Assembly: GCA_021108215.1 (NCBI GenBank)
Contig: JAIORK010000037.1
Span: 20,352 to 84,351, forward strand
Source: a bacterium
Lineage (GTDB): Bacteria; Oederibacteriota; JAAXVQ01; JAUVAV01
Length of the DNA: 64,000 nucleotides
Direction of reading: 5' to 3'
Positions 7,321 through 61,468 of the stretch are shown piece by piece (within the stretch, counting starts at the first letter, position 1; every line of letters starts with the position of its first letter). The notes beneath the pieces were generated by a model. The model saw only the letters and a list, made by a program, of their open reading frames with translations. It had not been told where the DNA came from and did no database searches. The position numbers and the translations under genes were made by a program.

Positions 7321-7340
7321 TTTTTCTCCTCCTGAATCTT

Positions 7341-7865: not shown

Positions 7866-7875
7866 AGCATGACTC

Positions 7876-10075: not shown

Positions 10076-10076
10076 T

Positions 10077-11043: not shown

Positions 11044-11103
11044 TAAAAACACCTGCTACATCTGCAATTATTAAAGGATTTAGTTGTATTTTCAAGTCTC
11101 CGG

Positions 11104-11123
11104 ATTCCCGCTTTCGCGGGAAT
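11104..11123. terminator. Perfect 8-bp hairpin ATTCCCGC-TTTC-GCGGGAAT between convergent genes
   Basis: It lies between the HEPN stop (+ strand) and the stop of 11177..11971 (- strand). It has the ATTCCC-N8-GGGAAT palindrome shape of a widespread REP-like class. No clear U-tract follows on either strand, so a terminator role is uncertain. Confidence 0.3.
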
Positions 11124-11176
11124 GACTGACAATAAATCCCCCGCCCCCCTTTACAAAAAAAAGTGTGTTTATCCTA

Positions 11177-11971: not shown

Positions 11972-11979
11972 CGTCTCCC

Positions 11980-45847: not shown

Positions 45848-45860
45848 TTTAAACTAATAA

Positions 45861-45890
45861 AAAGAGGATGCTCTTGTATCCTCTTTTTAT
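45861..45890 (+). terminator. Rho-independent terminator after the EF-G paralog
   Basis: aaagaggat-gctcttgt-atcctcttt is followed by a T-rich tract ttatt, 14 nt after the stop codon. Confidence 0.7.
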
Positions 45891-46018
45891 TAAAATTTTT
45901 TAATTAAATTTTCAATAAAAAAACATAAGTTTTTATCTAATTTTTATACAGTGCATCTATCTTCAACCACTCAGTAAAGCATACTGGATTCACTGACACT
46001 TAAATACAAAGGAAAAAC

Positions 46019-46819
46019 ATGTCTATTTTTAAAAACAAATCAAATAAAATCAGTCATAATAAAAAAGCAAAACATGATCTCCATTTAGAAGAAGTTCTTT
46101 ATAATTCCAACAACCCAACACGCCGTCAATTACATCTTTCCCGGTTCAACTGGATTTGTAATGCAATCAACAAATACACGGATAATAAAAACACTACCAT
46201 TTTAGAAATCGGTGTTGGCTCCGGTACTTATTTATCTAAATTATCAACCGTTGCAGATAAAGTTATGGTTTCCGATATTGATAAATCATATTTAAATCAT
46301 GCGCAAAACAAATTTGTAAATACCAATATCAGTTTTACAATTGATGACATTACAAAAAGCCGATTTGATGGCAATACTTTTGACTTTATACTTTGCAGTG
46401 AAGTGATCGAGCACATCAAAGAATCGCAAAGAGCATTTTTCGAGATTCACCGGATATTAAAACCAGGGGGGATTTTAATTATGACTACACCCCAAAAATA
46501 TTGCCCCTTGGAACTGTTGGTAAAAATTATTTCTGTACTCCCTGGAATGAAAAAACTTGCGGAATTCGTTTACAAAGAACCTGTACCTGAAGAAATGGGA
46601 CATATTAATTTAATGACAAATAAAACCATTTTAAAACAAACCCATTTTGTGAATCTTGCATTGATAGAAAAATACAAATGCGGTATGTACCTTCCGATGA
46701 TTGCCGAGCTGGGTGGCGAGCCAGGAATGAAATTACTACGTTATCTAGAACATCATCTTCGGGATAGCCTTTGGGATTGGATGCTTTGGACCCAGTGTTA
46801 CGTTTTTTTAAAATCTTAA
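46019..46819 (+). CDS. Class I SAM-dependent methyltransferase
   Basis: ILEIGVGSGTYL (motif I), VSDID (motif II acidic), ILCSEVIEHI and LKPGGILIMTTP. Confidence 0.75.
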   Translation: MSIFKNKSNKISHNKKAKHDLHLEEVLYNSNNPTRRQLHLSRFNWICNAINKYTDNKNTTILEIGVGSGTYLSKLSTVADKVMVSDIDKSYLNHAQNKFVNTNISFTIDDITKSRFDGNTFDFILCSEVIEHIKESQRAFFEIHRILKPGGILIMTTPQKYCPLELLVKIISVLPGMKKLAEFVYKEPVPEEMGHINLMTNKTILKQTHFVNLALIEKYKCGMYLPMIAELGGEPGMKLLRYLEHHLRDSLWDWMLWTQCYVFLKS

Positions 46820-47184
46820 TTTCCCAAGTACCCTTTGATGTTTATTTTCCAACAACGTCAATCATTTAAGTTTATTTAAAGTAGCGTATATTTACCTATA
46901 TCGCAGACTAATAATTTTCAAAATAAATGGTAATAAAATCATTTCAAAGATCATCTAATAATTAGACATACTTTGGCAGTATACGGAATTCCGTCAAATG
47001 TATGCCGGAATTCTTATGGACTATCTTTTCCGCATATTGTATAACCAGTATTGTGTGGCAATAGATTTTTTTCGACATACTATTTTTAATAAAAAACCGA
47101 GCAATTGTTTTCTGCTTTTTTACTTCCACAATAAAACATGCTACCATTGAGATAGCATGATAAAAAAAGGGCGGATCAGCCGAC

Positions 47185-48474
47185 ATGATCTCCAACAAAT
47201 TGTTGAACATCTACAACCATTCAAAAACCGTCATGGTCGTCTCTAATTTCCCACCTCGCAGCCAAACACATGGCGACAAAGTAGGTGGCGTCGCTAGTTT
47301 CACGCGCAATAAAATTAAGCCATGGTCACGTATTCGAAGAGATCGAATGATCGTATTGGCAGACATTATCGACACACCAGAAGTATTCGAAGATGAAAAT
47401 ATTTTAATCATTCGCTGTTGGAATAGAAACCGACCACAATTATATTATCAAATATTCTCAACCATTTTAAAATTCACTCAAGTAAACACCATTCTTTGGG
47501 AATTCGAATTTTCCCTTTACGGAGACACTGGAATCATGAGTGTCTTTCCCGCTCTACTGGGTTTGGTAAGTGCTTGTCATAAAAAAAATATCATTGTCAT
47601 GCACCAAGTACTATTGGATCTCGGGACACTATCTGGTCACATTGGCTTACCTAAAAACACGTTAAAAACAAAACTTATGTCAAATCTGTTGAAAACATAC
47701 TACCGTCTGATGATGTTGACGTCTCACAAAATCGTGGTATTAGAAAATTCTCTTAAAAAAAGACTTCTCCAATTAAATTCTCAACACCAAAAAGTGATTA
47801 CCATACCACATGGTGTCGATTGTAATATTACATCTTTACCCAAACATATCGCTCGTCAAAAAATCAATGTTTGTACAAAAGAGTATGTCATTCTTCTTTT
47901 TGGTTATCTGACCTGGTATAAAGGTGCAGATCTTATTCTTAAATCATTCGAAAAATTGCACGAGGAATGTCCAGGTACAAATATGCGTCTCATCCTGGCT
48001 GGCGGACAAAGTTTGACACAAAAACACAAAAGTCATTATCGCAAATATTACCGTCAACTTGAAACGCATGCACGCAAAATAAAAAATGTCCAAATTACAG
48101 GCCATGTAAAAGAAAAAGATTTCGCAACATATTTCGGCGCAGCCGACATTGTTGTTTTACCTTATCGAGCATTCATGTCTTCTTCTGGAATTTTATCCTT
48201 GGCATTATCTTACAAGAAGCCTATCGCGTTATCAACATGTCTGAAAAAGTGGATTGGACCAGAACATCAAGTTTTAGAAAAAGACCTTACTTTTTTTGAT
48301 CCCCAAGTAAACACACTATGTGCTTGTCTCCAGAATCTTCTCCATCAGCCGACACGTCTGAAAAAAAATATAAAAGTTGTTGAAAAATTACGTAAAGCGA
48401 GAAGTTACGAACAACTCGCCCACTCTTATGAAGACCTCATCCGCTCAATACAAAATCAGACAATTATTAATTAG
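47185..48474 (+). CDS. Glycosyltransferase (GT-B fold, GT4-like)
   Basis: The 429-aa product has YKGADLIL..LILAGG..ITGHV...ADIVVLPYRAFMSSSGILSLALSYKKPI, which follows the C-terminal GT1/GT4 nucleotide-sugar binding layout. The usual first Glu of ExxxxxxxE appears to be replaced. Confidence 0.55.
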   Translation: MISNKLLNIYNHSKTVMVVSNFPPRSQTHGDKVGGVASFTRNKIKPWSRIRRDRMIVLADIIDTPEVFEDENILIIRCWNRNRPQLYYQIFSTILKFTQVNTILWEFEFSLYGDTGIMSVFPALLGLVSACHKKNIIVMHQVLLDLGTLSGHIGLPKNTLKTKLMSNLLKTYYRLMMLTSHKIVVLENSLKKRLLQLNSQHQKVITIPHGVDCNITSLPKHIARQKINVCTKEYVILLFGYLTWYKGADLILKSFEKLHEECPGTNMRLILAGGQSLTQKHKSHYRKYYRQLETHARKIKNVQITGHVKEKDFATYFGAADIVVLPYRAFMSSSGILSLALSYKKPIALSTCLKKWIGPEHQVLEKDLTFFDPQVNTLCACLQNLLHQPTRLKKNIKVVEKLRKARSYEQLAHSYEDLIRSIQNQTIIN

Positions 48475-48539
48475 TCCCTTATATTTTGAATTCTATCGTT
48501 ATTATTTTTTCTGCCGTTCTACCCACGACTCATTTTTTG

Positions 48540-49736
48540 TTAATTAAGCCTTGCACTGGCCATCGAGGATTCTTTCTTTATAATTTTTTCTTGAATGAGT
48601 TCTATGTATTGAGCAATAACATCGTCCATCGAATAGGTACGTGCAGCATAATAATTTTTTTCACCGAAGTGGCGTAATTTTCCAGGACTATTCTCGAATA
48701 ATTGAAGAATTGATTTTGCAATACTATTTGTATTTTGAATATCAAAAAAATCCATACAATATCCCTCTTGCTCTTTCTTTCTAAAAAACGGCAGATCCGA
48801 TACCAACAAAGGCATCTGGTACATACAAGATTGAATCAATGCGCCAGATTCACCACCAATGGTATGATATGGCATAATTGCAGCTTCATTTTCCGAATGA
48901 ATCTGATGCACTTTTTCTTCGGGAACATATCCTATAAATCGAATATTAGGATTTCCCGAATATCGCCGCCTCAGTTCTTCAAGATAATCGGGATTGTGCG
49001 CATTGGATGCGCCCACAACATTCAATCTCACATCCTGGTCAATTTCATAGACATGACGCATTGCTGCCAGCGTTGTTTCCAATTTCTTATGCGTTCCAAA
49101 TATTCCAAATGCAAGAAGATTTTTCCTTTTCCTAGATATCATTTTTTTGGATTGATCCATCACGCATCCAGACCCACCCAAAGATCCATGAGGCATGATT
49201 TTCACATGCTGCGCTTTATATTTTTGTTTAAGAATTATTTCATACTCAGGTAATAACACACACATATTACCTGCGCGAGTAAGCATCCAGGTTGCCAATG
49301 TCGCGCCCCATTTTATGAATCTATTATTAAACGAGTTCATTTTTTTCAAATCCACCAATTCTATCATGTTGTGAAGTGTGATTAAGCATGGAATGTTTAA
49401 TAATTTTTTTGTGATTAGCGGCACCATCATTCCCATAAAATTAGCAGTCGTCATACCAAAACTTCCCAAAGTGATATTAAACCAACAACAATCCACTGAA
49501 AGTTCCCTAAGATGATTGACGATCTGCCAAGACAACAAAGGAGAATCGAACCTCCATACCCTATGAATCGTAAGCTTCCCTTCATGGTGGATCTCCGGAT
49601 ATCCATCCACCATGTCAGCAATCACATGAATCCGTTGAACTTTCCGATTATTTTTTAGTGCCCTAACCAAATGATAGCAATACTCGCTCACTGGTCGCTT
49701 CCCTGGAACATAATTGGATATTAACGCAATATTCAT
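48540..49736 (-). CDS. Glycosyltransferase (GT-B fold, GT4-like)
   Basis: The 398-aa product begins MNIALISNYVPGKRPVSEY. It carries FGTHKKLE...LNVVGA...IRFIGYVPEE...AAIMPYHTIGGESGALIQSCMYQMPLLVSD, a typical GT4 C-terminal pattern. Confidence 0.6.
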   Translation of the reverse strand: MNIALISNYVPGKRPVSEYCYHLVRALKNNRKVQRIHVIADMVDGYPEIHHEGKLTIHRVWRFDSPLLSWQIVNHLRELSVDCCWFNITLGSFGMTTANFMGMMVPLITKKLLNIPCLITLHNMIELVDLKKMNSFNNRFIKWGATLATWMLTRAGNMCVLLPEYEIILKQKYKAQHVKIMPHGSLGGSGCVMDQSKKMISRKRKNLLAFGIFGTHKKLETTLAAMRHVYEIDQDVRLNVVGASNAHNPDYLEELRRRYSGNPNIRFIGYVPEEKVHQIHSENEAAIMPYHTIGGESGALIQSCMYQMPLLVSDLPFFRKKEQEGYCMDFFDIQNTNSIAKSILQLFENSPGKLRHFGEKNYYAARTYSMDDVIAQYIELIQEKIIKKESSMASARLN

Positions 49737-50012
49737 TTCGAGTCACACCCTCACATCACAATATTTTGCATTTTCCAATCCCTTACAAAATTTCATGTAA
49801 CACCGTTCGCTTGATATAGCACTTATTTTCTTTATATATCTGATCGTGAATTACAGAATCATTTTCTTGAAAAGATCAACTGTTCTGAATAGATTGATAG
49901 CTGAAATACACTATTATTAGATGCGTGTGAGCACTTTTTTATTACTTTTATTTTCAATTCCGCAGTTCATTTGACGACAACTTATTTCATTATTTCAGAG
50001 TAGATTTCTCAA

Positions 50013-52472
50013 TCACAAATTAATCCGCAGAGACTTCCCATCATCGGTAGAAATAAGAATTTGATCTATGTTTAATACTGCCCCTGGAGAAATGCCGATT
50101 TCAACGATAACAACATTTTCGTACCATTCCGGATCTTTTGATTGTATATCATTGATTTGTTTCGCAAGCGGTTCTTGTACCCATTCCCGGTATTCCGAAT
50201 TCTGAAGAAGTCGTTTATAGGACAATTCATCCAAACGACGGATGATTTTCCGATAATATGGCTGAGCTAGTATTGCACTTTCTGATTTTGAAATCACTGC
50301 GGCAAACTTCCTATCTTTCATTTTTAAATCAAATACCGTCTTATTCACTTCATATATTTTTCGCCCAAATCGAGGATGATTTAGCAGACGATAGTACAAT
50401 TTTCTATTGAGCCTTCTAATCTGTTGTCCAAATTCAGGATGAGAAAGTAACTTTTCCTCAAGTTGATGCTGCACCTGACGAAACATCTGATGTTCTAATT
50501 GTATATCATAAGCCATTTGCTCAATTTTTCTTAAAATAAATCCATATTTTTCATCTTTCATTTTTTCCGCTTCACTTATTCGAACCCACTTTTCTAATTG
50601 ACCACGCAGGTTTTTGTTAGACAGCATATTCCAATGTAACTGATGATTCAATTGCCTATAGAACATGCCATAAAGATGATGATCTTCTTTTTTATTTGTT
50701 TCTTCATCCTCTAGTTTCATCAAAAGCTCCCAATAGGGAACGCAAGTTTGATCTAGCTCAAAACTTTTCCACTGAACCTCCAAATATCTTTGTTGATATC
50801 CTTCTTCCATTCTCTGCTTCATTGTCAAATTTTGGTTAACTTCAGCAATAATTTCATGATCGTATTCTTGTTCCTTGAGCAAGTGCTCTAAAAATTCATG
50901 CATATGCTGAACCGCAAATACAGGGGGATGCCCTCCCCATTGTCGCCTCAACATATAAAAAGAAAATTCATCAAAGCCTCTTTCTCTATTTTTTATCCAT
51001 CTCCCCCAGTGTTGTTTTAAACTTTTTTTTATATGTCCACTAAATTGATCTCTGAAACCTGACATATCGAGCACTCGAAAAATAACATCCTGCTTTTCAG
51101 AATACTTTTCTATAAGCAATCTGTTTCGTATCTTTGTCATTTTTTTTTCGTCAGCTTCCATAACCCGCCTTACCTCTGGAGAAGCTTTTCTTTTGATTTC
51201 ATTTCGCCATTTTATTTCTTGCTTTTTCTTATCGCGAAGAAACACCCTTATCTCCACTTCTCGCTCATGCTCCCGAATCATCTTCTGAAGTCTCCGATAT
51301 TTACCCACCTCAATTTTTTCTAAAAATCCACGGAATCGTTTGTCCTGCCTAGCTTTTTTTCCTTCTTTTTCGCTAAAAAACCGCCCTTGGAAAAACACAG
51401 ACTTATTTAAATCTTGATTCTTTAACCGATCATGTTGTCTTCTTTGACGATCCAATTTTCGCCAATGCTTCATTCTTTCTTCCAAGCCCGGCCAACCTTG
51501 CTGTGCTTCCGCCAACATTTCCAGCCGAATCAATTCGCTCTCCTTCCATACTTCCATATACTTTTCCTGATCACGGTCATAAAGTTCCAATAAAAGATCG
51601 ATCCTCTTGGCTGGTATAATTTCTTTAAAAAAACGGCAAAATTTTTCGTTCCCACACATTTTTTCTCTTTGTTGCCAGCCATACATTGTTGCCTCTGATA
51701 ACATAAACTCTTTTAGTCTTGGGTCGCTCTGTTTAATCGCCCTCCATAATATCCATTCTTTTTCTGAAACAACATTCTCTAAATACTGTTTCACCGATTT
51801 ATTGGTCTCTTTTAATTCTCGAATCATTTGCCATTTCAATTCCTCAACAGCATCAAATGCTCCCGAAGCTTTTTGATCATTTTTGAGAAGTTGAACCAAT
51901 TTTTTTTGGGTCTCCCATTCTATATCAGCAGTCAACTGTTTCATCCGGTAATGTTCTTTGGGTGGCAGCTGTTGTATAAGTTTTTCTTCAAGTTGTTTTC
52001 CGAGAATTTGATACTTTATTAATTGGTCATCCATCTGGACAGGACCCGTAGGTTTGTTGGAACGATAATACTTTTGGATTATTTTTTCTTTGTCTAAATA
52101 ATAATACTTACCCGGCTGAGTAAATTCCATACCTTTGGCACTAAACGTTTCCCGGTTTCCGCGCACTATACGTGTTAGCGAAAAATAACCATGATACCCC
52201 TTGATATTTTCTTTGACACCATGAACGTCTCGAATTGATATTTCATAACGATTATAAGGGCCATTCAAGGCTAAAGGAATATATGCACCACCATATTCCT
52301 CTGAATGAAGATTTCTGATTTGTAAAATACCGTTTTTTTGAGAAACAGCAACATCCTTCAATATCCATGGTTGAAAAGAAGCAATATCAACTTGTGACGC
52401 ATGATGATCTTCCGCCATTGCTGCATTTATCATCATTAACGAGATTATTAAAAATAAAATCCTATTCATCAT
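50013..52472 (-). CDS. Secreted 819-aa protein with an N-terminal beta domain and a long charged helical region, function unknown
   Basis: The signal peptide is MMNRILFLIISLMMINAAMA. The remainder is extremely K/E/R/Q-rich with recurring HP(E/R)FG(Q/R)(Q/K)I segments. The coding sequence is AT-rich. Confidence 0.5.
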   Translation of the reverse strand: MMNRILFLIISLMMINAAMAEDHHASQVDIASFQPWILKDVAVSQKNGILQIRNLHSEEYGGAYIPLALNGPYNRYEISIRDVHGVKENIKGYHGYFSLTRIVRGNRETFSAKGMEFTQPGKYYYLDKEKIIQKYYRSNKPTGPVQMDDQLIKYQILGKQLEEKLIQQLPPKEHYRMKQLTADIEWETQKKLVQLLKNDQKASGAFDAVEELKWQMIRELKETNKSVKQYLENVVSEKEWILWRAIKQSDPRLKEFMLSEATMYGWQQREKMCGNEKFCRFFKEIIPAKRIDLLLELYDRDQEKYMEVWKESELIRLEMLAEAQQGWPGLEERMKHWRKLDRQRRQHDRLKNQDLNKSVFFQGRFFSEKEGKKARQDKRFRGFLEKIEVGKYRRLQKMIREHEREVEIRVFLRDKKKQEIKWRNEIKRKASPEVRRVMEADEKKMTKIRNRLLIEKYSEKQDVIFRVLDMSGFRDQFSGHIKKSLKQHWGRWIKNRERGFDEFSFYMLRRQWGGHPPVFAVQHMHEFLEHLLKEQEYDHEIIAEVNQNLTMKQRMEEGYQQRYLEVQWKSFELDQTCVPYWELLMKLEDEETNKKEDHHLYGMFYRQLNHQLHWNMLSNKNLRGQLEKWVRISEAEKMKDEKYGFILRKIEQMAYDIQLEHQMFRQVQHQLEEKLLSHPEFGQQIRRLNRKLYYRLLNHPRFGRKIYEVNKTVFDLKMKDRKFAAVISKSESAILAQPYYRKIIRRLDELSYKRLLQNSEYREWVQEPLAKQINDIQSKDPEWYENVVIVEIGISPGAVLNIDQILISTDDGKSLRINL

Positions 52473-52571
52473 TTCTAATTAAATCCTTTTTTATTCCATA
52501 GAATCTTCTGATCAAATTGCTTCCCAACTTCTCTATAATCGCCAGCGGACAAGTACTATTCATTTTCATCA

Positions 52572-55500
52572 TCACGGTCTAAATTTCTTCAACAGTTCAT
52601 TGATTTCTTCGCAATGCGGAATTCCTTTAAGAAAATCTCGAACACCTTCAAATCCAGCTTGTTTGGCATAACGCTCTAAAATTATCTGATCTTCCAACGA
52701 AAGCATTTGATAATTCTCCTGATGAATCCGAGGCAAACCCAGCTTAGGCAAATGATGAACAGGGTAAGCATAACATCCCAAATGTTTTATTATAGAATGA
52801 TATAATTCACCATAGGTTTTCAACCCTTTAAATGATCCTTGGCGAATAAAAATCCCAGCTCTGGCAAGAACTCTTTTGAAATCACGATGTGTCAAATAAT
52901 ATTCCCATTGATTAGCGCCATAAAACCGAGACAAATCGTGATTAATTTGCTTACGCCAATATTCTAAATCAACTACTTCACGGAGAATCATTGCTGCTTT
53001 CTTATCTGAAATTTTCTCTGCTTTGGGTGCCGGCATTTTCAAAACAAGATCACCATACGAGGCAATAAAATAGGCTAACTGATCAGCACGTATAGAACCA
53101 GTATTTATAAAATCCTGAAATGAATCATACTGCATATTTTTCGCCATAGTATTAAACTCTGCAATGGTATATGGTTTAGGAAGAAAATAGTTTAAATAAT
53201 CAATCAAACGATTAGAGTCATCAAAGTAGTATTCTTTCTCACCAGTTTGTTCAATATAACTTCTCTGTTTGCCCTGCAGCCGATCACGAATATTTTGACC
53301 TATTGCGACAAGTTTAAATACCCAAGGATTATAATGACCCAATGCTCCACGATAAAATGGACTGTCCCCAATATAGCGTGTCAGTTGATATGGATAAATA
53401 CATTCAGATTGATACATTGACAAATCCCAGATGTAATTCCAAGATCTCGCTTCAAAATGAAGAAAAACCCAAAAAACAAATGACATGGCAATAAAAACAA
53501 TAGGAATGCGATGCTTCATACGTAGCCGAATTTGCATAGATTTATATTTTATAATAATATAAAATAACATCATGACTCCCAAAATAATTACGACAACTCC
53601 CCATAGAGGACCAAAGCCTTTCCATGCCTTCACAATATTTTGAATTTTCCCGGGTAAATCTTCTTTCCCGGTTAAATTACTAAAAAAACTTTCTTTAATC
53701 ATATTTCTTCGTCGTGAAGCATCCGGATGTATTGTCAATCCCAGCATTGATCGCGAATCGGGATTCAGTTCATCTAACGCTATCGTTTTTGAAGGTTTAT
53801 GCCAAATTGTTAAAGGTCCCGCCCAAAAATGAATTCCAGGATAATTCCCAACCAGATCCCATCCTGTGGCTGCCAACACATCCGCGTAGCCATTATTGCC
53901 ACATATAATATAATTCAAACCCCAATGATCATTTTCCAATAAGTACCGCATAAGCGGTTTCATAGAATTAATCGACCCACGATCAAGTCCTACAATCGCC
54001 ACATCATGTTCTGGATGTTTTCCATGTCGATGATTAAACATGATGGTATCAGCTTGCATTCGTAATGTTTTTTTTGTATTCAATGTTATTAATTCAAATG
54101 AAGTTCCAATAACCAAGTATCGATGTACCATATCATTAATACTTGATTCATCATGTAATGAATGGATTTTTTCTAGATCCGGATATTCAGTTTTTTTAAG
54201 TGGTAGTATTTTTCTTACATTTTTTACTCGGTAAGGAGCATAGGGCTGTAATTTTCCCTCTGCACCTTTTTTTATCCGAATAATACGGCGTAATGGATCC
54301 TGAGTATTCATTCCAAAAAATGGTGGCTGTCCATTACGCCCCCCACTTTGCATCACAAATTCCAAGTCTTCTTCTGAAAACAGCAATTTTAATGTCCTTA
54401 GAATGACTCGTGAATTCTGAATTGATAATTCCGGCGAAGTCGTCTCGATCCCAATTTTAAAAACCAAGTGATAAAGTCCTGTTGCCTTATCTAGCTTGAA
54501 GTGTTTTTCGATAAATTTCCAGTCTAACTGATATACATGACTTCCCGGTGTTAATTTTGGTTTTAATTTAATATAAACTGCTTTGTTTTTTTGTCTTCGA
54601 TTATTTTTCCCCTCAGATTCAATGATAATCCACCCATTCACGAGCGGAGTTCTCTCCTCAACATCTACCCAAATATATTTGGGAATTTTTCGTAGTATCA
54701 CCGTTCTATAAATATACCCATAATTCCGGGGATAATCTGACGGCTGCTCTGCAGACGTTCTTAACACTCCCTTTTTTTTATCTTGTATGTTGCTAAACTG
54801 ATTTGGTTGATCCTTGCTTTCCGTTCCACGAACCGCAAGTTTCATTTGACCCTGATTTCCTTGATAAAAATCCAGCGTAGCACCGCAAGATATTTCGGAC
54901 AACGCATCTGGAAGAACGAAATGATTTTGAAACGGCGTAATATAAATTTCCGCCTTAGGATCAATCACACCTTCACGAAAAATCAAATTGATACCTTTTT
55001 CATATGACAATATATTTCCGAACTTCTCCGGCAGCACGCTTTTTTTTCGTAACTGTATGCCTTCAATAATCGCCCAAAGTTCTTTTTTATTTTGACTTTT
55101 GTTATTTGCTTTTGATTGTTTTTTTAGATCTTCTCGTTTCCCGGATTTTTCACTACTCCCAATACTCTCTGCCAAACCCAACACCAATCGAATACAACCA
55201 TTCGCTTCAGACATTTTTTTTTCAGGCAAATTAATGTAATAGATGCCAGGAGACGCCATTACCGTTTGCACCCATGGTAATACCTCCTCACTCGTTTTTT
55301 CATGCTTGACTTTTGAGGCACCACCACGAGGTAACGCCGCACCAAAATCACGCTGCAGAGTACGGTTCCTCTCTGTTCGAGCCATTTGAAATATTTTTTG
55401 TCGATATGCATCATGATAGACTTTCAAATACATGTGTTGCGTTGGTACCAGCTTATTAATTTGAATTGTAAGAATATGATGTCCAGGTGGCAGAATCATC

Positions 55501-58500
55501 GTCCTTTCAATTTCACCACGACTATCCTCCTGACCCCCACCATGTATTAACAATTGGTTATTTTTAATTATTTCTGCGTTAAGTCCCCCGCCTTTTATCC
55601 AATCCCAAACACAACAATCTTCTGAAAAATAATAATTACCAATTTGTGGCAGCGTAATGGCACCATCTTGTTTCCGCCATTGATTGTGCTGCTTCTGTTG
55701 TGATGATAAGATTTTTGTCGGTTCTTCTTCTGTATATACTTTTTGCTTTTTCCATTGATCCAATAAATTCCTGAGCATACTGATCATCGCACCTGATTCA
55801 TGTCCTGGGCCATACTGGTGCCATAACACTCTCATGAGTTTTTCAAGTCTTTCAATTGACCATCCTGTTTCTTGTCGCCACTGATTCAGGACAAATTCCG
55901 GAAGCATTTCTCGAACAGAAACACCAATATTATATGTATGATTCCCGCACAATTGCCGATCCCGCCAAAATTGGAGAGATGCTCCCGGCCCAAACGAAGG
56001 TTCTGTTTTTAACAGCAATGCACGAACATCTTCCGGTTTCATTTCATGCACCATCAAAGTCCTACTTTTTTTTATTTCCATTTCATTTGCAGATATCAAA
56101 CCCTGACTATAGTTTTCAAGCATTTTACTAAACTGTGCTATTGTTAATTGAGGTGACATAAATGAAATGAACATCTCCTCAATGGTCGGTTCCCTTGGAA
56201 GTTGTTTCCCTTTCACTGCTTGAAAAATATCTATACACTTTTCATGAAACAATGTACGTCTGCTATATCCTCCCGAAGCAATCCTCTGCACCAAACCATC
56301 AGCATACCGTTCCATGCCTTCTGCTTCTTCAACTACAGGGCTTCCACCACCCGGCCGTGGCCGAGTTGTAACAAATCTGGCGTTTCTCACTTTTGCCATA
56401 TTTTTCATGATCAGCACAATCTCTTTTTTTGTCTTCAGCCCAAATTTTTCAAAATATCCGTTTGCGAGCATTCGCGTGGATACCTCCAAATAATTATCCT
56501 CACAAATAACACCATTCTCAATAAAGTACTCCTCATTCAATAAAATCCGAAATGTCTCTTCCAAAGTTTCCAGACCATATCGATGACCTCTTCCCATAAG
56601 ATAAAAACATAGGATAACGAGTGCCTGTTTTTCCCGAGTCTGAACACGATCAAACTCTTGGGCATTGACTTTCAATAATCGGTTAAGCTCCTCATATTTT
56701 AGTTCATATTCCTTTGCCCATGTTTCACGCAGCCAATTGATCTCTTGGGACAAAATATCCTCACGAAATTCTTGCCAAAATAATGTTGTGCGCAATTTAT
56801 TTTGAATTTCATTTAATTCATGCATCGGTAGGATTGCATTTTCTTGGTTGATTTGCAGATATAAAGGATAGCGTGTCACAATAAGTTGAAACGCTTCAAA
56901 CGGTTTAGCATATTTACTCGTAAAATATTGTATCCATGGTTTATATTTTTCTGAAACATTCGCATCGTGCTTTACAATACGCATAAAATCGTTGAATGAT
57001 ATTTTTCGAAAGCCATGTTTCTCTAACTCAGCATTTACTTCCAGATGAATCCCCTGAATATCAGGTGGTGGTTGAAACTTTCCCGTTTTCAACAAACTTT
57101 TCAATTCCTGATACAATCGATTTCCGGGCCGATATCCGTAGAGTGACCACTTATATTTTAATATGATTGCTTCAATCTCTCTTGCTGAATAGGTTTGTAA
57201 TATTTTTCTTTTCAAGACCGACATGAGCTCATATTTTTCTAACAATCGATCTGTCTCTTCTGGTATATCCTTTTGATCCCCATAGGCTTGGTACGCCTGT
57301 TTATCCTGAAAAGACAACTCGCTCGCTTCAGCAAACTTCTGAAGTGCTTCTTGTATGGAACGGTTTTCTTCTGGAAAAATATGATGTCGCGTAATCATGT
57401 GCTGAAAACCTTTTAAAGAAAGATCAATTTCTTTGCTTGCAAGAAATATATTGAGCGAATTTCCGGATACCTTCGAGGTGGATTGCAATTGAATTTTATC
57501 ACTATTTGAATAAAATCCAATGACGGGCTCAAAAATTGGTTGACCGGAAAGACCAGTTTCAGATTCACACCCTTCGGTGGCCTGAGCTAAAAAATCGATA
57601 TATTGAATATAAAAAGCATTAAAAAGTAATTGCTCCCTATTTTCTTGAAAACAATCTCGCTCAGGAACGATAAAATTCATCAATCCTTCTTCATCCCAGC
57701 CATCACATTTCATCCCTTCTTTTAATCGATCAACGTAATACTCCAGTTGCGCTATATCATATTTCGCTAATATCGCCTGCACTTCATTAATATTCAAATG
57801 TAGGTTACTTATATAATTAAAGGCTTCAGTAATAAAAACTAAATACCAGTTGTAACGTGCCACTGCTTTAATATCTTCTGCTTTTTGATCAATTCCAAAA
57901 CGCAACAATTGAACAACACGTATTAAAAAATCAAAGCTAATATTCAAATCTTCACAAAATGCTTTCACAGCATAATAATCTCGAATATTCAAATGCGATT
58001 CATCCTGCCACAGCACTTTATGCTCAGATTCCAATCGGACATTTTCAATGGTTGCATAAGCATCACCTTGATGACTTTTGACGAATATTTTTAGTACACC
58101 ACCATCAATTTCATCAATATTGATTGAATTTCGTAAAAACGCATCATGTAAATCAACTTGTTGATATCCAAATGTGAAACGAGGATCAATTTTAATGCTT
58201 TGTCTTCCTTTAGGTGTCAAAACATCGATTTGGATGCTGGTATACCCCTTTTTTCCGGCGTATCTTCCAGAGCTGACAAACCTTAAAAATCGCATCGCTC
58301 GAATTGTTTTGGGTGACAGCTGCCATGCGATTAAACCCGGTCCGGTTAATGATGTTGTCGACAAATAGAAATTATTTTCACCACGTTTGTCCCTTTGGCG
58401 TGCTTTTTCGTACGCATGATAAAATAACTTTGATGGTTTTTTCTTTACAACCAACACACCTTTTTTAATAACAGCTAATTTATATGTTAGCGGTTGCCTT

Positions 58501-59366
58501 GCAACGGCATACTCGATTTTTTTTATACTTTGTATTTGATTTGGCGTATGCTTTTGTTCCGAAATCGCCAACGGTGCATGATAAGACAATGGACGCGTAA
58601 CATTTTTCGAAAAAGTGGTTGTGCTTAGATTCACCGCACTTCGTGGATTCCCTCTTTCATCCTTGGTTTGCTCTTCACTCGCATAATTCACACCTTGACG
58701 ACGCGAGACCGAAGATGTCTTAAATATAAGGTAATTCAATGATTGTTGAAGACTCGGAATTTTTACATCACCAAGTTCAAGGGGGGGCGTGAACAATGTA
58801 ATAACACCGGACAAGGCGAAAAATGGCAGTCGTGTCAATCCAGCTAAGCTAAATAGTGGTGCAATGAAAAGAAAACCAATCAGCAATACTATTTTAACTA
58901 TGCTAAAAACGAATGATTCCCCTTTTACTTGGCGCGCAATATTTTCATGAAAATATACGCATGCAGATGTCTTTTTCGGGGCTTCCAAAGCAACAACTTT
59001 ACTTGTTTTTTTTCTCACCCAAGCAAACAACATCATTGGTTGATATATAAAAATACTCAATAGCAATAAAGGCCCGAGATAAACAAAGAATAATACTGGA
59101 GCAACCGTTTCGGCCAATAGTACAGCAGACAAAATAATACCGAGCCACAACCATAAAAAATACCATCCAGAATATCTAAAACAATATTCACGCAATTTCG
59201 CACTGAGTATTAAACCTGCAACGACCATACTCACTAAAATCCAGATAAACATTGAAAGTCGAGAATTATGAAACCAATAAATACTCACAACTACTAATTG
59301 AACACTTAAAACGCCCAGTAAACCGGCAGTCAAACAACGTAAAGCAAGCATTGATAAGTTCTTCAT
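52572..59366 (-). CDS. Giant 2264-aa membrane-anchored protein, function unknown
   Basis: This is a single uninterrupted 6.8-kb ORF. It has an N-terminal cluster of about 5-6 hydrophobic helices and a second TM pair near aa 1930-1990 (WGVVVIILGVMMLFYIII and IPIVFIAMSFVFWVFL). Several beta-rich modules are separated by helical regions. I recognised no catalytic motif. Confidence 0.55.
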   Translation of the reverse strand: MKNLSMLALRCLTAGLLGVLSVQLVVVSIYWFHNSRLSMFIWILVSMVVAGLILSAKLREYCFRYSGWYFLWLWLGIILSAVLLAETVAPVLFFVYLGPLLLLSIFIYQPMMLFAWVRKKTSKVVALEAPKKTSACVYFHENIARQVKGESFVFSIVKIVLLIGFLFIAPLFSLAGLTRLPFFALSGVITLFTPPLELGDVKIPSLQQSLNYLIFKTSSVSRRQGVNYASEEQTKDERGNPRSAVNLSTTTFSKNVTRPLSYHAPLAISEQKHTPNQIQSIKKIEYAVARQPLTYKLAVIKKGVLVVKKKPSKLFYHAYEKARQRDKRGENNFYLSTTSLTGPGLIAWQLSPKTIRAMRFLRFVSSGRYAGKKGYTSIQIDVLTPKGRQSIKIDPRFTFGYQQVDLHDAFLRNSINIDEIDGGVLKIFVKSHQGDAYATIENVRLESEHKVLWQDESHLNIRDYYAVKAFCEDLNISFDFLIRVVQLLRFGIDQKAEDIKAVARYNWYLVFITEAFNYISNLHLNINEVQAILAKYDIAQLEYYVDRLKEGMKCDGWDEEGLMNFIVPERDCFQENREQLLFNAFYIQYIDFLAQATEGCESETGLSGQPIFEPVIGFYSNSDKIQLQSTSKVSGNSLNIFLASKEIDLSLKGFQHMITRHHIFPEENRSIQEALQKFAEASELSFQDKQAYQAYGDQKDIPEETDRLLEKYELMSVLKRKILQTYSAREIEAIILKYKWSLYGYRPGNRLYQELKSLLKTGKFQPPPDIQGIHLEVNAELEKHGFRKISFNDFMRIVKHDANVSEKYKPWIQYFTSKYAKPFEAFQLIVTRYPLYLQINQENAILPMHELNEIQNKLRTTLFWQEFREDILSQEINWLRETWAKEYELKYEELNRLLKVNAQEFDRVQTREKQALVILCFYLMGRGHRYGLETLEETFRILLNEEYFIENGVICEDNYLEVSTRMLANGYFEKFGLKTKKEIVLIMKNMAKVRNARFVTTRPRPGGGSPVVEEAEGMERYADGLVQRIASGGYSRRTLFHEKCIDIFQAVKGKQLPREPTIEEMFISFMSPQLTIAQFSKMLENYSQGLISANEMEIKKSRTLMVHEMKPEDVRALLLKTEPSFGPGASLQFWRDRQLCGNHTYNIGVSVREMLPEFVLNQWRQETGWSIERLEKLMRVLWHQYGPGHESGAMISMLRNLLDQWKKQKVYTEEEPTKILSSQQKQHNQWRKQDGAITLPQIGNYYFSEDCCVWDWIKGGGLNAEIIKNNQLLIHGGGQEDSRGEIERTMILPPGHHILTIQINKLVPTQHMYLKVYHDAYRQKIFQMARTERNRTLQRDFGAALPRGGASKVKHEKTSEEVLPWVQTVMASPGIYYINLPEKKMSEANGCIRLVLGLAESIGSSEKSGKREDLKKQSKANNKSQNKKELWAIIEGIQLRKKSVLPEKFGNILSYEKGINLIFREGVIDPKAEIYITPFQNHFVLPDALSEISCGATLDFYQGNQGQMKLAVRGTESKDQPNQFSNIQDKKKGVLRTSAEQPSDYPRNYGYIYRTVILRKIPKYIWVDVEERTPLVNGWIIIESEGKNNRRQKNKAVYIKLKPKLTPGSHVYQLDWKFIEKHFKLDKATGLYHLVFKIGIETTSPELSIQNSRVILRTLKLLFSEEDLEFVMQSGGRNGQPPFFGMNTQDPLRRIIRIKKGAEGKLQPYAPYRVKNVRKILPLKKTEYPDLEKIHSLHDESSINDMVHRYLVIGTSFELITLNTKKTLRMQADTIMFNHRHGKHPEHDVAIVGLDRGSINSMKPLMRYLLENDHWGLNYIICGNNGYADVLAATGWDLVGNYPGIHFWAGPLTIWHKPSKTIALDELNPDSRSMLGLTIHPDASRRRNMIKESFFSNLTGKEDLPGKIQNIVKAWKGFGPLWGVVVIILGVMMLFYIIIKYKSMQIRLRMKHRIPIVFIAMSFVFWVFLHFEARSWNYIWDLSMYQSECIYPYQLTRYIGDSPFYRGALGHYNPWVFKLVAIGQNIRDRLQGKQRSYIEQTGEKEYYFDDSNRLIDYLNYFLPKPYTIAEFNTMAKNMQYDSFQDFINTGSIRADQLAYFIASYGDLVLKMPAPKAEKISDKKAAMILREVVDLEYWRKQINHDLSRFYGANQWEYYLTHRDFKRVLARAGIFIRQGSFKGLKTYGELYHSIIKHLGCYAYPVHHLPKLGLPRIHQENYQMLSLEDQIILERYAKQAGFEGVRDFLKGIPHCEEINELLKKFRP

Positions 59367-59384
59367 CCTTTTTCATTCACCTAC

Positions 59385-60191
59385 TTATGGATTGACTAAT
59401 CTATATAAAGGAATTTTCATCGATACAGACCATTCATTTCTTATCGAATCACTTTCATGATATTGATTCAAACCTACACCGAATTCAATTCCTGTATGAT
59501 CCAAATGCAAACGTATACCTTGTGTTGTCACCATCTGTAATGCACTGTCTTGTCGGCCATTTTCATGAAAATCCATCCACCCGCTTCCTTCTGCATACAG
59601 ACCACCAAAAATTCGAAAATCGACTTGCATGATTCGATAGGATATATAGATCTCGCCACCGACTCGAAATGCCGCTTGATGCTGTGGATGTTTATACCGA
59701 ATAACCTGCGGCATATAACGGACAAAATTATGTATCTGTATGATCCCGCCGATATTTGATGTATCATTGTTTGCCCATAAATATCCAAAACCAATTTGCC
59801 CATTAAATGCGGCATAAGTATACGGTTGTTCCTGTAAAAAATTTATATGGAGAGATACATCTGTTTTCTGTGTATAAATATTGTTAGACTGAAAAAGAAT
59901 CCGCTCTTGATAATTCCGAAAAGGAATATAAGTACCTTCTAAAAATAAATTTTTATCCAAAAAACCTATTAGACTGAATACGTTTTCCGAATAGATTGTT
60001 TGCAAATAAAGGCTTTTTGATAGCGAGTCAAATGTCATCGTTGATTGCTGAACATATTGCCAACCTGCCTTTGCAAAACTTGTAGATGGTGTGTTTGAAT
60101 TTTCAGAAAAAACAGATGCCGTGGTAGAAAATAAAAATCCAATACCTAAGCAAATAACCATTATTATATTTTTACTTAAACTCGTCGACAT
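59385..60191 (-). CDS. Barrel-like outer-membrane protein candidate, function unknown
   Basis: The start is trimmed to MSTSLSKNIIMVICLGIGFLFSTTASVFS. It is aromatic-rich with alternating beta-strand pattern throughout. It is separated by 18 nt from the giant ORF start. Confidence 0.4.
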   Translation of the reverse strand: MSTSLSKNIIMVICLGIGFLFSTTASVFSENSNTPSTSFAKAGWQYVQQSTMTFDSLSKSLYLQTIYSENVFSLIGFLDKNLFLEGTYIPFRNYQERILFQSNNIYTQKTDVSLHINFLQEQPYTYAAFNGQIGFGYLWANNDTSNIGGIIQIHNFVRYMPQVIRYKHPQHQAAFRVGGEIYISYRIMQVDFRIFGGLYAEGSGWMDFHENGRQDSALQMVTTQGIRLHLDHTGIEFGVGLNQYHESDSIRNEWSVSMKIPLYRLVNP

Positions 60192-60499
60192 TTCCTCTTC
60201 TTTGATTGTTAAGGGGCCGATGAAAAAAACCATTGTCATCTTCCTCTATTAATTAATCCTGTCTGAATTCAAGTTAATATTAAACCGCATGATCATTTCC
60301 ATTCATGCAAATAACACATTAACATTTCCGCATCGCCCAACTCATGGTATTCCATTGTAAAGCATACATAATATAGACGTCTCAATCAGTAAAAATATTT
60401 GTTTTTTAGGCATTTTTACCATCACAAGGGATTCCAGATAGACAAACTCAATTTGAAAGAGCCCCCAATATGAGGCAGTCTTATGACTTACTTAAATAA

Positions 60500-61468
60500 T
60501 TAATGTTGTAACTGTTCGGTACGAGAGTGTCGTGCAAAACGCACACAATTACGTCCAGCCCGTTTGGCCCGATAAAGCGCTTTATCCGCCGCATCCACCA
60601 ATTCCTCCGGCACCTTTCCATCATTCGGAAATGTCGCGACACCCACTGACATGGTAATAATTTGCAAAATCCCAGATTCATTTTTTCCAAATTGCTGCTT
60701 CTCAAATTTTTTATGCAGCCGATGGGCAAAAACCAACGCCTCTTTATGATTTGTCTCCGGAAGAATAAGGGCAAATTCATCACCGCCATAACGTGCCACC
60801 GTATCCGCTTCGCGGCTATGTCCTTTAAAAAATCCGGCAATTTCACGCAATAAAATGTCACCCTTCATATGTCCTAAACTATCGTTATATATTTTAAAAT
60901 GGTCCAAATCAATAAACAACAGACTAAAGGTCCGGTTATACCGTTGGCAGCGTGCCAATTCATCACGCAGATTTTCCTGAAAATAACGGTGGTTGTACAA
61001 CCCGGTGAGTCCATCTTCATTGACAAACAACAATAAACAATCCAAATCTTTTTCCGGGAGCATTTTCAAATCTTTTCCCTGCCCTGAATAATTATTCAGA
61101 TAATCCAATACCGCTACTTTGATCCCGACATTCCGCCCTAGCTTTTCAGACATATAATACTTATGTAAAATAATTTCCTGCCAAAGCTGCTTCGCCTCTT
61201 GGGGTGAAAACTGCTTATGCGTCAGCGCCTGCAGCAGATCAATATAAAGTTCGTCCCCTTTGCTTGTGCGGAGGTTCTCCATGGGTTCCCAGAGATCACG
61301 CGGAATTTTGTCCACATCGCCGGCAAAATAATCCAGTACCGCCTTATCCTTGGACATCCAGCGCACAAACTGCTTGGCTTCCTGAATCGTGGAAGTGGAG
61401 CGCATGCAAAATTTATTATCCCTGCTGGATTGTTGCAGCTCAACTGCCACCGCTTTTTTATTTCTCAT
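60500..61468 (-). CDS. Diguanylate cyclase (GGDEF) with an intact I-site and an N-terminal domain of unknown type
   Basis: LTGLYNHRYF, FIDLDHFKIYND and READTVARYGGDEFALIL give an RxxD I-site five residues before GGDEF. Confidence 0.85.
   Translation of the reverse strand: MRNKKAVAVELQQSSRDNKFCMRSTSTIQEAKQFVRWMSKDKAVLDYFAGDVDKIPRDLWEPMENLRTSKGDELYIDLLQALTHKQFSPQEAKQLWQEIILHKYYMSEKLGRNVGIKVAVLDYLNNYSGQGKDLKMLPEKDLDCLLLFVNEDGLTGLYNHRYFQENLRDELARCQRYNRTFSLLFIDLDHFKIYNDSLGHMKGDILLREIAGFFKGHSREADTVARYGGDEFALILPETNHKEALVFAHRLHKKFEKQQFGKNESGILQIITMSVGVATFPNDGKVPEELVDAADKALYRAKRAGRNCVRFARHSRTEQLQH

Follow-up and report, generated by a model that had tools for sequence, protein, structure and literature searches.

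A low-G+C insertion between EF-G and GGDEF genes of an uncultured FCPU426 bacterium encodes apparent free-standing relatives of giant-ORF modules

A compositionally foreign block of about 14.6 kb is inserted between an elongation factor G (EF-G) paralog and a GGDEF diguanylate cyclase gene in an uncultured marine-sediment bacterium of the candidate phylum FCPU426 (genome, 3.56 Mb). By sequence homology, its largest gene is a stand-alone version of a module found inside the giant open reading frames (ORFs) of the same family. We consider it probable that an accessory cluster combining free-standing giant modules with sugar enzymes entered this junction in the lineage of the species. The block, its edges, and its flanks lie as follows in the window, the whole 64,000-nucleotide stretch analysed.

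43763-45847, plus strand: EF-G paralog, left flank, outside the island; synteny anchor (NCBIfam elongation factor G, 809 bits)
45855-45892, plus strand: EF-G intrinsic terminator hairpin (17-bp stem and T-run; perfect 15-nt inverted repeat I21)
45,893-60,499, no strand: low-GC inserted block (G+C, tetranucleotide distance, empty site in relatives)
60240-60499, minus strand: AT-rich intergenic region of 260 bp at the right island edge (sequence reading)
60500-61468, minus strand: GGDEF diguanylate cyclase, right flank, not island cargo (Pfam GGDEF, 4.7e-49)
61582-62979, minus strand: M18 aminopeptidase, right flank, syntenic in relatives (NCBIfam PRK02256, 550 bits)

The first-pass annotation had described a sharp change in G+C over positions 45850-60300; sliding-window analysis bore out the change and the block, whose refined edges are 45,893 and 60,499. 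G+C is 36.3% within these limits versus 44.6% in the remaining window and 46.3% in the whole genome. In 1-kb windows it passes from 0.44-0.50 at 44-46 kb to 0.33-0.40 at 46-61 kb and to 0.47-0.49 beyond. The left edge directly follows the EF-G terminator, with G+C dropping immediately 3' of the hairpin, and, beginning with the GGDEF gene, both G+C and GC3 are again at the level of the genome. The annotation had also proposed tetranucleotide and codon-usage deviation as checks. All six island genes lie at the 1.0-5.4 percentile of GC3 among 1,880 ORFs, against percentiles 29-50 for the flanking EF-G, GGDEF, and M18 genes, and the step is abrupt at both gene boundaries. By raw tetranucleotide distance to the genome, the block ranks largest of 409 same-size windows; its GC-normalised tetranucleotide correlation (0.885) is within the lowest ~6%, and its 5-kb windows fall under the genome's 1st percentile for G+C (0.374). 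It is the longest among 11 low-GC tracts of the genome (tract at C12:65-82 kb). The other tracts carry typical accessory genes, encoding an OLD nuclease, a DNA methylase, a SIR2-like protein, and a PMT glycosyltransferase.

Comparison of the EF-G-to-GGDEF interval across relatives, also suggested at the outset, showed that the gene set is not conserved there. EF-G has orthologues in 10/10 other family genomes (61-78% identity), and in three other genera of the family (G005, G006, and G002) the site is empty, with GGDEF orthologues (60-69% identity) directly adjoining EF-G and, in G005, M18 next. G005 and G003 both have M18 orthologues (64-69% identical) at this site. In the EF-G tree, the three genera with the empty site all fall outside the clade formed by this genome (G000) and its sister genus G003 (support 90/96); the block is therefore read as an insertion, in agreement with the earlier claim that it was acquired. 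The junction has also been taken by other accessory genes, since G003 carries there a cohesin/T9SS-tail protein, a PorV-like protein, and a YhaV toxin pair. In all samples with the species the island is fixed, and all five island-bearing assemblies are 99.98-100% identical. Searches of the island for integrase, transposase, and phage-family matches, tRNA genes, flanking direct repeats, and Rfam elements returned none, as the annotation had found for integrase, tRNA, and repeats.

It is improbable that the cluster is instead an ancestral native locus, present at the site in the family ancestor, repeatedly lost, and low in G+C through local mutation bias or selection without any transfer. Fixation in the species, the lack of detected mobility genes or repeats, and confinement of the module family described below to this family of FCPU426 would all agree with such an origin. 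However, at least three independent precise losses would be needed, each restoring the EF-G-GGDEF adjacency (G005, G006, and G002), and the abrupt composition step at both gene boundaries argues against it. So do the relatives' modules, which sit inside giants at other loci rather than at this site, and the two GT4 genes, both without relatives in the 98 other genomes of FCPU426 searched. Acquisition into the junction thus stays the preferred reading for the six genes of the island.

46019-46819, plus strand: class I SAM-dependent methyltransferase, 266 aa (Pfam Methyltransf_11, 2.4e-19, plus Methyltransf_25/23/31)
47185-48474, plus strand: GT4-type glycosyltransferase, 429 aa, cytoplasmic, without a transmembrane (TM) segment (Pfam Glyco_trans_1_4 and Glycos_transf_1 above cut-off)
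48540-49736, minus strand: GT4-type glycosyltransferase GT398, 398 aa, last gene of the minus-strand set (Pfam Glycos_transf_1, 1.8e-13)
50013-52472, minus strand: predicted secreted protein, 819 aa (signal peptide, beta-type N-domain, long charged helical region)
52572-59366, minus strand: polytopic membrane protein, 2264 aa (end-to-end homology to a giant-ORF segment; TM clusters)
59385-60239, minus strand: beta-rich protein, 284 aa, first gene of the minus-strand operon (N-terminal hydrophobic signal-like segment)

The 819-, 2264-, and 284-aa proteins matched nothing in Pfam or NCBIfam, and all three had been called orphans. For the 2264-aa protein the ORF call holds and the orphan label does not. 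It aligns end to end, at 25-35% identity, with an internal segment of giant ORFs of sister genera: residues 24-2263 correspond to 9730-12658 of the G001 giant (two blocks, E about 1e-123 each) and 7273-10213 of the G003 giant. The module is also present in G004; no second copy was found in the genome itself, which has 13 ORFs of >5,000 aa with the giants' head and tail. Identity of the window copy to all three relatives is 32-36%, against 46-70% among the relatives themselves. The module is thus phylogenetically incongruent, as G000 is the sister of G003 by EF-G. A search for a donor found none, all known module homologues having 44-52% G+C rather than 36%, and no homologue was found in JGI metagenome and viral contigs. 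Between window residues 1486 and 1546, G001, G003, and G004 carry a GH5-like insert (~570-650 aa) that is missing from the window copy, and this suggests that the protein serves in binding or as a scaffold, not as a hydrolase.

The orphan label also fails for the 819-aa protein, whose ORF call and secretion signal (a single hydrophobic segment, N-terminal) stand. Family searches gave no match, and no homologue of similar size was found among 5.8 billion proteins; its residues 532-811, however, match 11282-11599 of the G003 giant at 49 bits, whereas 60 local shuffles reached at most 31 bits and the reversed sequence 25 bits. The C-terminal ~280 aa, about a third of the protein, thus share remote homology with a giant-ORF segment, which lies just downstream of the 2264-aa module, in the same order as in the island. 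Only for the 284-aa protein, also a correct ORF call, was the orphan label borne out. It matched itself alone among 1.84 billion representatives, apart from a chance-level CHRD-repeat match, and had no match in 40 relatives; by these searches it appears to be a true orphan. The barrel-like fold first suggested for it stays putative, its AF2 model (pLDDT 32) being uninformative.

These homologies could also suit a decaying remnant, in which the 2264- and 819-aa genes would be functionless leftovers of a broken giant, drifting to AT after loss of its head, SecY/SecA part, GH5 insert, and tail, with the glycosyltransferases as unrelated hitch-hikers. The module does lack the conserved head and tail common to at least 10 of the genome's own giants as well as the GH5-like insert, it is far more divergent than the species relationship predicts, and its amino-acid composition is shifted toward FYMINK (0.33 versus 0.27). 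However, frames that stay unbroken for 6,795 and 2,460 nt would be unexpected in DNA of 36% G+C barring selection or a very recent origin. Each gene has a start of its own, encodes a hydrophobic N-terminus, and ends cleanly (the 2264-aa gene closes with TGA TGA TGA, and eight in-frame stops precede the next gene), and operon spacing is tight (18 and 99 nt). Furthermore, the alignment spans exactly the N-terminal TM cluster to the last residue, as would suit a cassette bounded by domains better than a break at random. We therefore regard decay as unlikely and favor working genes taken in as part of an accessory cluster.

The enzyme calls of the first-pass annotation, a SAM methyltransferase and two GT4-like glycosyltransferases, were confirmed by Pfam and NCBIfam (Glycos_transf_1). 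The methyltransferase (GC3 at the 2.2 percentile) reached no NCBIfam equivalog at its cut-off. Among 98 other FCPU426 genomes, the 429-aa GT4 had no homologue at E<=1e-12 and GT398 none at E<=1e-15. The best relatives of GT398 (46-48% identical) are on contigs of an unrelated organism, whose BipA is only 45% identical to that of this genome; elsewhere, its homologues pair with a polytopic protein of 583 aa, which the island lacks. By sequence, the GT4 genes are thus of foreign affinity. An anti-phage system formed by the methyltransferase and the large proteins was also considered, given the OLD nuclease, DNA methylase, and SIR2-like genes of other low-GC tracts and a match of the methyltransferase to the MTase domain of PADLOC mad2 (1.4e-17). 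That match covers 132/492 profile positions and only the generic SAM-binding domain, the other five proteins had no PADLOC or PHROG match, and the large proteins are predicted membrane or secreted homologues of envelope giants with GH5 domains, leaving a defence role very improbable.

The block resembles low-GC genomic islands and surface-glycan clusters (O-antigen and capsule-like loci) in its sharp G+C and codon-usage drop, its GT4s plus methyltransferase, its absence from the relatives' syntenic site, and its position at an insertion hot spot. Unlike them, it lacks an integrase, tRNA, and repeats, as well as Wzx/Wzy/Wza-type, ABC export, and sugar-nucleotide synthesis genes, and more than two thirds of it encodes three large, predicted non-enzymatic envelope proteins. 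A matrix module under cyclic di-GMP (c-di-GMP) control had been suggested as a possibility; the neighboring cyclase and PilZ proteins would then control how the island makes and exports its glycan. A distance of 260 bp separates the GGDEF gene from the operon start, four PilZ genes occur in the window, and pilZ genes usually follow the giant genes of Omnitrophota, where GGDEF domains occur in many giants (bioRxiv 10.1101/2023.11.21.568195). The setting also recalls c-di-GMP matrix operons (cellulose Bcs, Pel, and VPS), with glycosyltransferases beside a diguanylate cyclase and a weak similarity of GT398 to the NCBIfam VpsD family (24 bits versus a cut-off of 300). However, in island-free relatives EF-G likewise has the GGDEF gene and the PilZ gene (at 43085 in the window) as conserved neighbors, so the cyclase is an ancestral neighbor that owes its adjacency to the landing place, and the regulatory link is unsupported. 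The GGDEF gene is also a separate unit, transcribed away from the island promoter region. Unlike those operons, the block holds no c-di-GMP receptor domain, synthase, or export component: Pfam and NCBIfam detected no PilZ, GGDEF, or EAL domain in any island protein and no recognisable polysaccharide polymerase, flippase, or export domain, so that a matrix module could only be inferred. We judge this proposal improbable; of the overall first reading, the foreign block and the enzymes persist, and the orphan status of two proteins and the c-di-GMP link do not.

We propose instead that the accessory cluster may form an envelope or surface glyco-complex. Its core would be a minus-strand operon of three genes (284, 2264, and 819 aa), presumably transcribed from a promoter within 60240-60499, with the same-strand GT4 gene 276 nt further; the 2264- and 819-aa proteins would be free-standing versions of consecutive giant modules. 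Judging from hydropathy and the positive-inside rule, the 2264-aa protein (TM cluster, 4-189; TM hairpin, 1921-1972) would be anchored in the cytoplasmic membrane, as first suggested, through about five N-terminal helices, display about 1,700 residues outside the cytoplasm, re-enter the membrane by the hairpin, and end as a helical domain. As read by eye from the sequence, the outside region would consist of several beta-sandwich units similar to carbohydrate-binding ones, an extended helical part, and an alpha/beta domain that is conserved. Only residues 1547-1670 were modelled; this beta-sandwich gave a weak fold match to the Ruminococcus cellulosomal carbohydrate-binding module (CBM) 5fu3_B (probability 0.94, E 0.038) on a low-confidence model (pLDDT 49). 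Given this poor prediction and that for the 284-aa protein (AF2 model, pLDDT 32), the CBM-like and topology statements are weak. The 2264-aa protein may have lost, or never had, the catalytic insert; the 819-aa protein would be secreted and mostly charged helix, and the 284-aa protein a beta-rich exported partner. The methyltransferase and both cytoplasmic GT4 enzymes would most likely synthesise or modify a methylated glycan that this complex carries or binds, and the complex might serve a surface or adhesion role; only adjacency and shared composition tie their genes to the three large proteins.

The nearest known type is that of the Archaeovorins of Omnitrophota (West-Roberts et al. 2023, bioRxiv 10.1101/2023.11.21.568195; Seymour et al. 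2023), a likeness in described architecture. The module-bearing giants of the sister genera are polytopic, 13,661 aa and at least 12,210 aa long, and carry SecY, SecA, and GH5 domains. Like Archaeovorins, the relatives' giants reach 12-14 thousand residues, with many TM clusters, SecA DEAD/P-loop domains, a glycoside hydrolase domain, long unannotated stretches, and ABC permease genes coming after them; the island adds glycosyltransferase and methyltransferase functions, which Archaeovorins carry as fused domains (bioRxiv 10.1101/2023.11.21.568195). Unlike Archaeovorins, the window protein has only 2264 aa, no SecA, and glycosyltransferase and methyltransferase partners encoded by separate genes. 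The relatives' giants also hold SecY, which the main text of that paper names once, for the canonical channel, and they belong to FCPU426, a phylum that the main text does not mention. The 2264-aa copy indicates that pieces of giants of 12,000-14,000 residues can also occur as separate genes.

The low-GC block between the EF-G paralog and the GGDEF gene (the island, window 45,893–60,499) is an insertion at the junction of these two genes. Orthologues of the left-flanking EF-G paralog were present in all 10 other genomes of the family (61–78% identity), and in three of them, G005, G006, and G002, a GGDEF orthologue (60–69% identity) lies directly beside EF-G, followed in G005 by the orthologue of the M18 peptidase gene. 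Since these three genomes fall outside the pair formed by the window's own genome (G000) and its relative G003 in the EF-G tree (support 90/96), adjacency of EF-G and GGDEF is the ancestral state. At the same junction G003 carries other cargo and no GGDEF gene (L016:9044-12056, the stretch from EF-G paralog to M18 peptidase on its contig C55), namely a protein with a cohesin domain and a T9SS-type signal at its C terminus, a PorV-like protein, and a low-GC YhaV toxin paired with a small partner. This difference in cargo indicates that the site is an insertion hot spot. The flanking EF-G itself (window 43763-45847) is a diverged second paralog that shares 39% identity with the other G000 EF-G, on contig C52, and every family genome searched has a copy of both EF-G types.

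The edges of the island are well defined. Its left edge directly follows the EF-G terminator hairpin (45855-45892), and its right edge is a 260-bp spacer ahead of the GGDEF stop codon at 60500. In 1-kb windows, G+C was 0.44-0.50 up to 46 kb, 0.33-0.40 over 46-61 kb, and 0.47-0.49 thereafter, giving 0.363 for the island versus 0.446 in the remainder of the window (C12:20352-84351 of G000) and 0.463 across the 3.56-Mb assembly. Eleven tracts of G000 fall below a G+C of 0.385, of which the island is the longest, and its raw tetranucleotide distance to the genome was the largest when set against 409 windows of the same size. The GC3 of all six island genes ranked in the lowest 1.0-5.4% of 1,880 ORFs, and the genes on either side (EF-G, GGDEF, and M18 peptidase) at percentiles 29-50. 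The sharp change in composition described in the first-pass annotation, from spot counts, thus holds in the G+C profile, the tetranucleotide distances, and the GC3 ranks alike. That annotation had also seen no integrase, tRNA, or direct repeats, and our scans agree: there was no tRNA at the island, flanking repeats matched at chance level only, no Pfam or PHROG match to an integrase, transposase, or other mobility function was obtained, and an Rfam scan of the island returned no element.

The island and its flanks were recovered at 99.98-100% identity in four other marine-sediment assemblies, and the island was also present in marine-sediment and cold-seep sequencing runs. The four DNA runs examined yielded no contig in which the site is empty, and none of the RNA-seq runs contained the gene sought. 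In one marine-sediment run (X5), a single low-depth contig departs from the window at 45918, 26 nt past the EF-G terminator, and continues into 33 AT-rich letters that match nothing in G000; it could represent a strain that carries other cargo, or a chimeric assembly. In X7 and X6, both small cold-seep runs, island segments (45900-52300 and 55500-58900, respectively) assembled at a word depth of 7-15 with the flanks at 0-4, an excess that may reflect AT-favouring coverage bias or a second, commoner carrier of the island.

Every gene in the first-pass ORF set is present, and the methyltransferase and two GT4-like glycosyltransferases that it named were confirmed by Pfam matches above the gathering scores.

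Island enzymes recognized by Pfam and NCBIfam
46019-46819, plus strand: class I SAM methyltransferase
47185-48474, plus strand: Glycos_transf_1/GT4-type glycosyltransferase of 429 aa (GT429)
48540-49736, minus strand: Glycos_transf_1/GT4-type glycosyltransferase of 398 aa (GT398)

The methyltransferase scored 70.2 and 64 bits against Methyltransf_11 and Methyltransf_25 (cut-offs 21.2 and 27). For Glycos_transf_1 and Glyco_trans_1_4 (cut-offs 26.4 and 27), GT429 scored 43.3 and 44.5 bits and GT398 scored 50.8 and 41.4 bits; neither enzyme reached the cut-off of an NCBIfam equivalog, and neither had a relative in the other 98 FCPU426 genomes. Homologues of GT398 at 46-48% identity were instead found on metagenome contigs, one of them from an organism whose BipA shares only 45% identity with that of G000. 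The closest GT398 homologue is followed, with overlapping stop and start codons, by an unannotated protein of 582/583 aa (L042:10001-13759 and L043:223-3167, two stretches of such contigs). Its 583-aa version looks polytopic from the sequence, and on the longer contig, L042, a GT2 gene comes next. This partner is not part of the island.

The remaining three island genes, encoding proteins of 284, 2264, and 819 aa in that order, make up a compact minus-strand operon (gaps of 18 and 99 nt), and the GT398 gene lies 276 nt after it. The 2264- and 819-aa frames are in phase. A single ORF recently split by a nonsense mutation was considered; this origin is ruled out by the TGA TGA TGA and five further stops between them, eight in-frame stops that make these two genes. 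None of the three proteins matched Pfam, NCBIfam, PHROGs, or PADLOC. However, a six-frame search of 40 relatives identified homologues of the 2264-aa protein in three other genera of the family (G001, G003, and G004), always within enormous reading frames: a 13,661-aa ORF of 41 kb in G001, and in G003 an ORF of at least 12,210 aa that is cut by the contig end. Residues 24-2263 align with positions 9730-12658 of the G001 giant and 7273-10213 of the G003 giant. The whole module occurs in only 4 of 99 FCPU426 species genomes, with weak copies of its last ~360 residues in G014, another relative, and on contig C19 of G000. When all ORFs of G000 were compared, the module matching the 2264-aa protein was present as a free-standing gene only.

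The 819-aa protein had no homologue of similar length in a word-index search of 5.8 billion proteins. Its residues 532-811 matched positions 11282-11599 of the G003 giant at 49 bits, compared with at most 31 bits for 60 local shuffles and 25 bits for the reversed sequence. Within the giant, the matched segment comes after the 2264-like module and before the tail, so that the 2264- and 819-aa genes are ordered as one continuous stretch of a giant. These alignments identify the two proteins as two free-standing giant-protein modules. Of the three proteins that the first-pass annotation had called orphans, only that of 284 aa keeps this description: when 1.84 billion representatives were searched exhaustively with HMMER, it retrieved only itself and one chance-level match to a CHRD repeat. 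Its single-sequence AF2 model had a pLDDT of 32, too low for a firm assignment, and the barrel suggested in the first-pass annotation stays a candidate fold. The protein does not resemble the PorV-like protein of G003, of which it had been considered a possible counterpart.

Beyond the family, searches with the 2264-aa protein were largely empty. It had no match in a PDB sequence search, and the word-index search of the same 5.8 billion proteins retrieved only the G003 giant itself (P0002), whose source label, "phage tail tape measure," receives no support from PHROGs. A genome-contig search returned nothing with the single protein and only the three known relatives with the alignment, and two metagenome-contig scans and one viral-contig scan found nothing. 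In the four-way alignment, about 570-650 residues are missing from the 2264-aa protein between positions 1486 and 1546, where G001, G003, and G004 all carry an insert. Outside similarity of the module is confined to this insert, which resembles GH5 endoglucanases and mannanases; the match is weak with a four-sequence profile against the PDB (E 0.0015), and the Pfam Cellulase family matched in G003 at E 3.7e-4. With the insert missing, the free-standing copy lacks the likely catalytic domain.

A simple Kyte-Doolittle hydropathy scan placed a transmembrane cluster at residues 4-189 of the 2264-aa protein and a transmembrane hairpin at 1921-1972. Lys and Arg abound in loops 56-76 and 118-152 and in the hairpin loop; by the positive-inside rule, this would put the middle part, of ~1,700 residues, and the helical C-terminal domain on the non-cytoplasmic side. 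AF2 modelling of residues 1547-2263 from only five aligned sequences gave an overall pLDDT of 49, with values of 50-85 for a beta-sandwich (1547-1670) and the C-terminal helical domain. The best Foldseek match, to a Ruminococcus cellulosomal carbohydrate-binding module, was below the significance threshold and derives from this low-confidence model.

The giants to which the module belongs are modular mosaics. They begin with a head of about 450-750 aa that is common to at least 10 G000 giants (identity up to 56%) and end in a conserved tail of ~700 aa that several G000 giants also have, and comparison of two giants with all G000 ORFs showed that the modules between head and tail are shuffled. 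The G001 giant (SecY-SecA part: L024) contains Pfam SecY (2994-3305), SecA DEAD, P-loop, and wing domains (3407-4478), a GH5 cellulase domain, and dozens of hydrophobic helices in a hydropathy scan, and is followed by two genes for binding-protein-dependent ABC permeases (L011:2906-4748; G001:C1:32906-34748). The SecY-SecA block of the giants recurs at 40% identity over ~1,900 aa in a 9,337-aa ORF on contig C19 of G000, where a second SecY domain (C19:26722-27651, 168 bits, above the Pfam cut-off) again precedes SecA DEAD, P-loop, and wing domains; the canonical SecY of G000 is on C31. In total, the 3.56-Mb G000 assembly has 33 ORFs of at least 2,000 aa, 13 of them above 5,000 aa and the longest of 9,482 aa, which together occupy 13.6% of its DNA (examples: C19:2956-30966, C19:33402-61847, C4:9046-36852, C1:56939-83227, and C13:21324-47231). 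Low G+C is not a general trait of giant genes, as the other G000 giants have a G+C of 0.43-0.54.

Descriptions of giant bacterial genes have so far come mainly from Omnitrophota, and our literature search found no paper connecting FCPU426 with them. The presence of SecY, SecA, GH5, many helices, and downstream ABC permeases makes the G001 giant closely resemble the "Archaeovorin" type in domains and gene order. In Omnitrophota, the 46 giants of the detailed set centre on ~30,000 aa and more, ABC permease genes are reported downstream of giant genes, and SecA domains are described, with SecY named once only in the main text, for the canonical SecYEG channel (West-Roberts et al., bioRxiv 10.1101/2023.11.21.568195). 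The island differs from Archaeovorin in several respects. Archaeovorin is an ORF of well over 10,000 aa, as are the relatives' giants (13,661 and at least 12,210 aa), whereas the window protein has 2264 aa. The divergent SecA DEAD helicase domain of Archaeovorin has no Pfam counterpart in the 2264-aa protein, whereas SecA_DEAD, P-loop_SecA, and SecY lie at 2994-4478 of the G001 giant. Archaeovorin also has fused glycosyltransferase, methyltransferase, and GH domains, whereas in the island the GT4 enzymes and the methyltransferase are separate genes and the GH5-like insert is missing. Numerous transmembrane regions are a shared trait, found in the 2264-aa protein and by the dozens in the relatives' giants (Kyte-Doolittle).

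The island is composite in origin. The window copy of the module shares 32-36% identity with the three embedded copies, which are 46-70% identical among themselves; this divergence is at odds with the EF-G tree, in which G000 is the sister of G003. Either the window copy derives from a more distant donor that is missing from the sampled genomes, or AT pressure made it diverge quickly. Judged from these comparisons, both the GT4 genes and the module copy have phylogenies incongruent with that of the species. The first-pass view of the block as an acquired island is thus supported by its composition, by the empty sites in G005, G006, and G002, and by this incongruence. Comparison of the EF-G to GGDEF interval in relatives, made with genomes of other genera only, found the island absent and its genes not syntenic across the clade. 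The island is thus a mosaic of genes with relatives inside the family and genes with relatives outside the phylum, all at one low G+C. This shared composition points to residence in a donor replicon of low G+C; the two metagenome-contig scans and the viral-contig scan detected no such replicon. Four other low-GC tracts of G000 (C13:55274-57199, C9:69204-71069, C20:55545-56588, and C5:59399-61324) encode an OLD-family AAA/TOPRIM nuclease, an N6/N4 DNA methylase, a SIR2-like protein, and a PMT-type membrane glycosyltransferase, and look like defence and surface islands. Low G+C is thus a mark of the flexible gene pool in this organism.

The first-pass annotation had further suggested that the block might be under c-di-GMP control, given the adjacent diguanylate cyclase gene and the PilZ genes of the window. 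In the Omnitrophota, pilZ genes often follow giants (bioRxiv 10.1101/2023.11.21.568195), which leaves some room for such a link. Here, EF-G has both the GGDEF gene and the PilZ gene at 43085 as conserved neighbours in genomes without the island, so the point of insertion accounts for the adjacency. In Pfam and NCBIfam, no protein encoded by the six island genes matched a c-di-GMP receptor (PilZ, I-site, or degenerate GGDEF/EAL), a synthase, or export machinery. With GGDEF ancestral to the site and the island proteins free of c-di-GMP-related domains, our analysis does not support a link between the island and c-di-GMP.

Most likely, the island would encode an envelope complex assembled around a membrane-tethered, probably glycan-binding scaffold and served by the island's own glycan-modifying enzymes. 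We also consider it possible, if rather unlikely, that the giant genes of this FCPU426 family are built from, and able to shed, domain-bounded cassettes that also occur as independent genes and travel between genomes with glycan-modifying enzymes, the island being a captured intermediate; such a cassette would comprise a transmembrane cluster, an ectodomain, a transmembrane hairpin, and a helical end. If this is true, cassette traffic would be a direct clue to the build-up of bacterial proteins of more than 10,000 aa and would bear on whether giants are covalently linked assemblies of parts also able to work alone.

By itself, the island is an ordinary accessory surface-gene cluster; what is new is the free-standing, GH5-less giant module. 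Within a single family, one module exists in two states, in frame within ORFs of 12-14 thousand residues in three genera and, in a fourth, as a separate 2264-aa gene that precedes the 819-aa gene in an island of foreign composition. These two states offer a concrete, testable case for the modular build-up or break-up of giants. The natural module boundaries may also guide structure prediction and the expression of pieces. Collectively, these results extend giant SecA-bearing envelope proteins, with a fused SecY, to the candidate phylum FCPU426, and the free-standing, GH5-less copy of the module in this little-known phylum is worth following up for the question it addresses, namely, how giants arise and whether their parts act separately.
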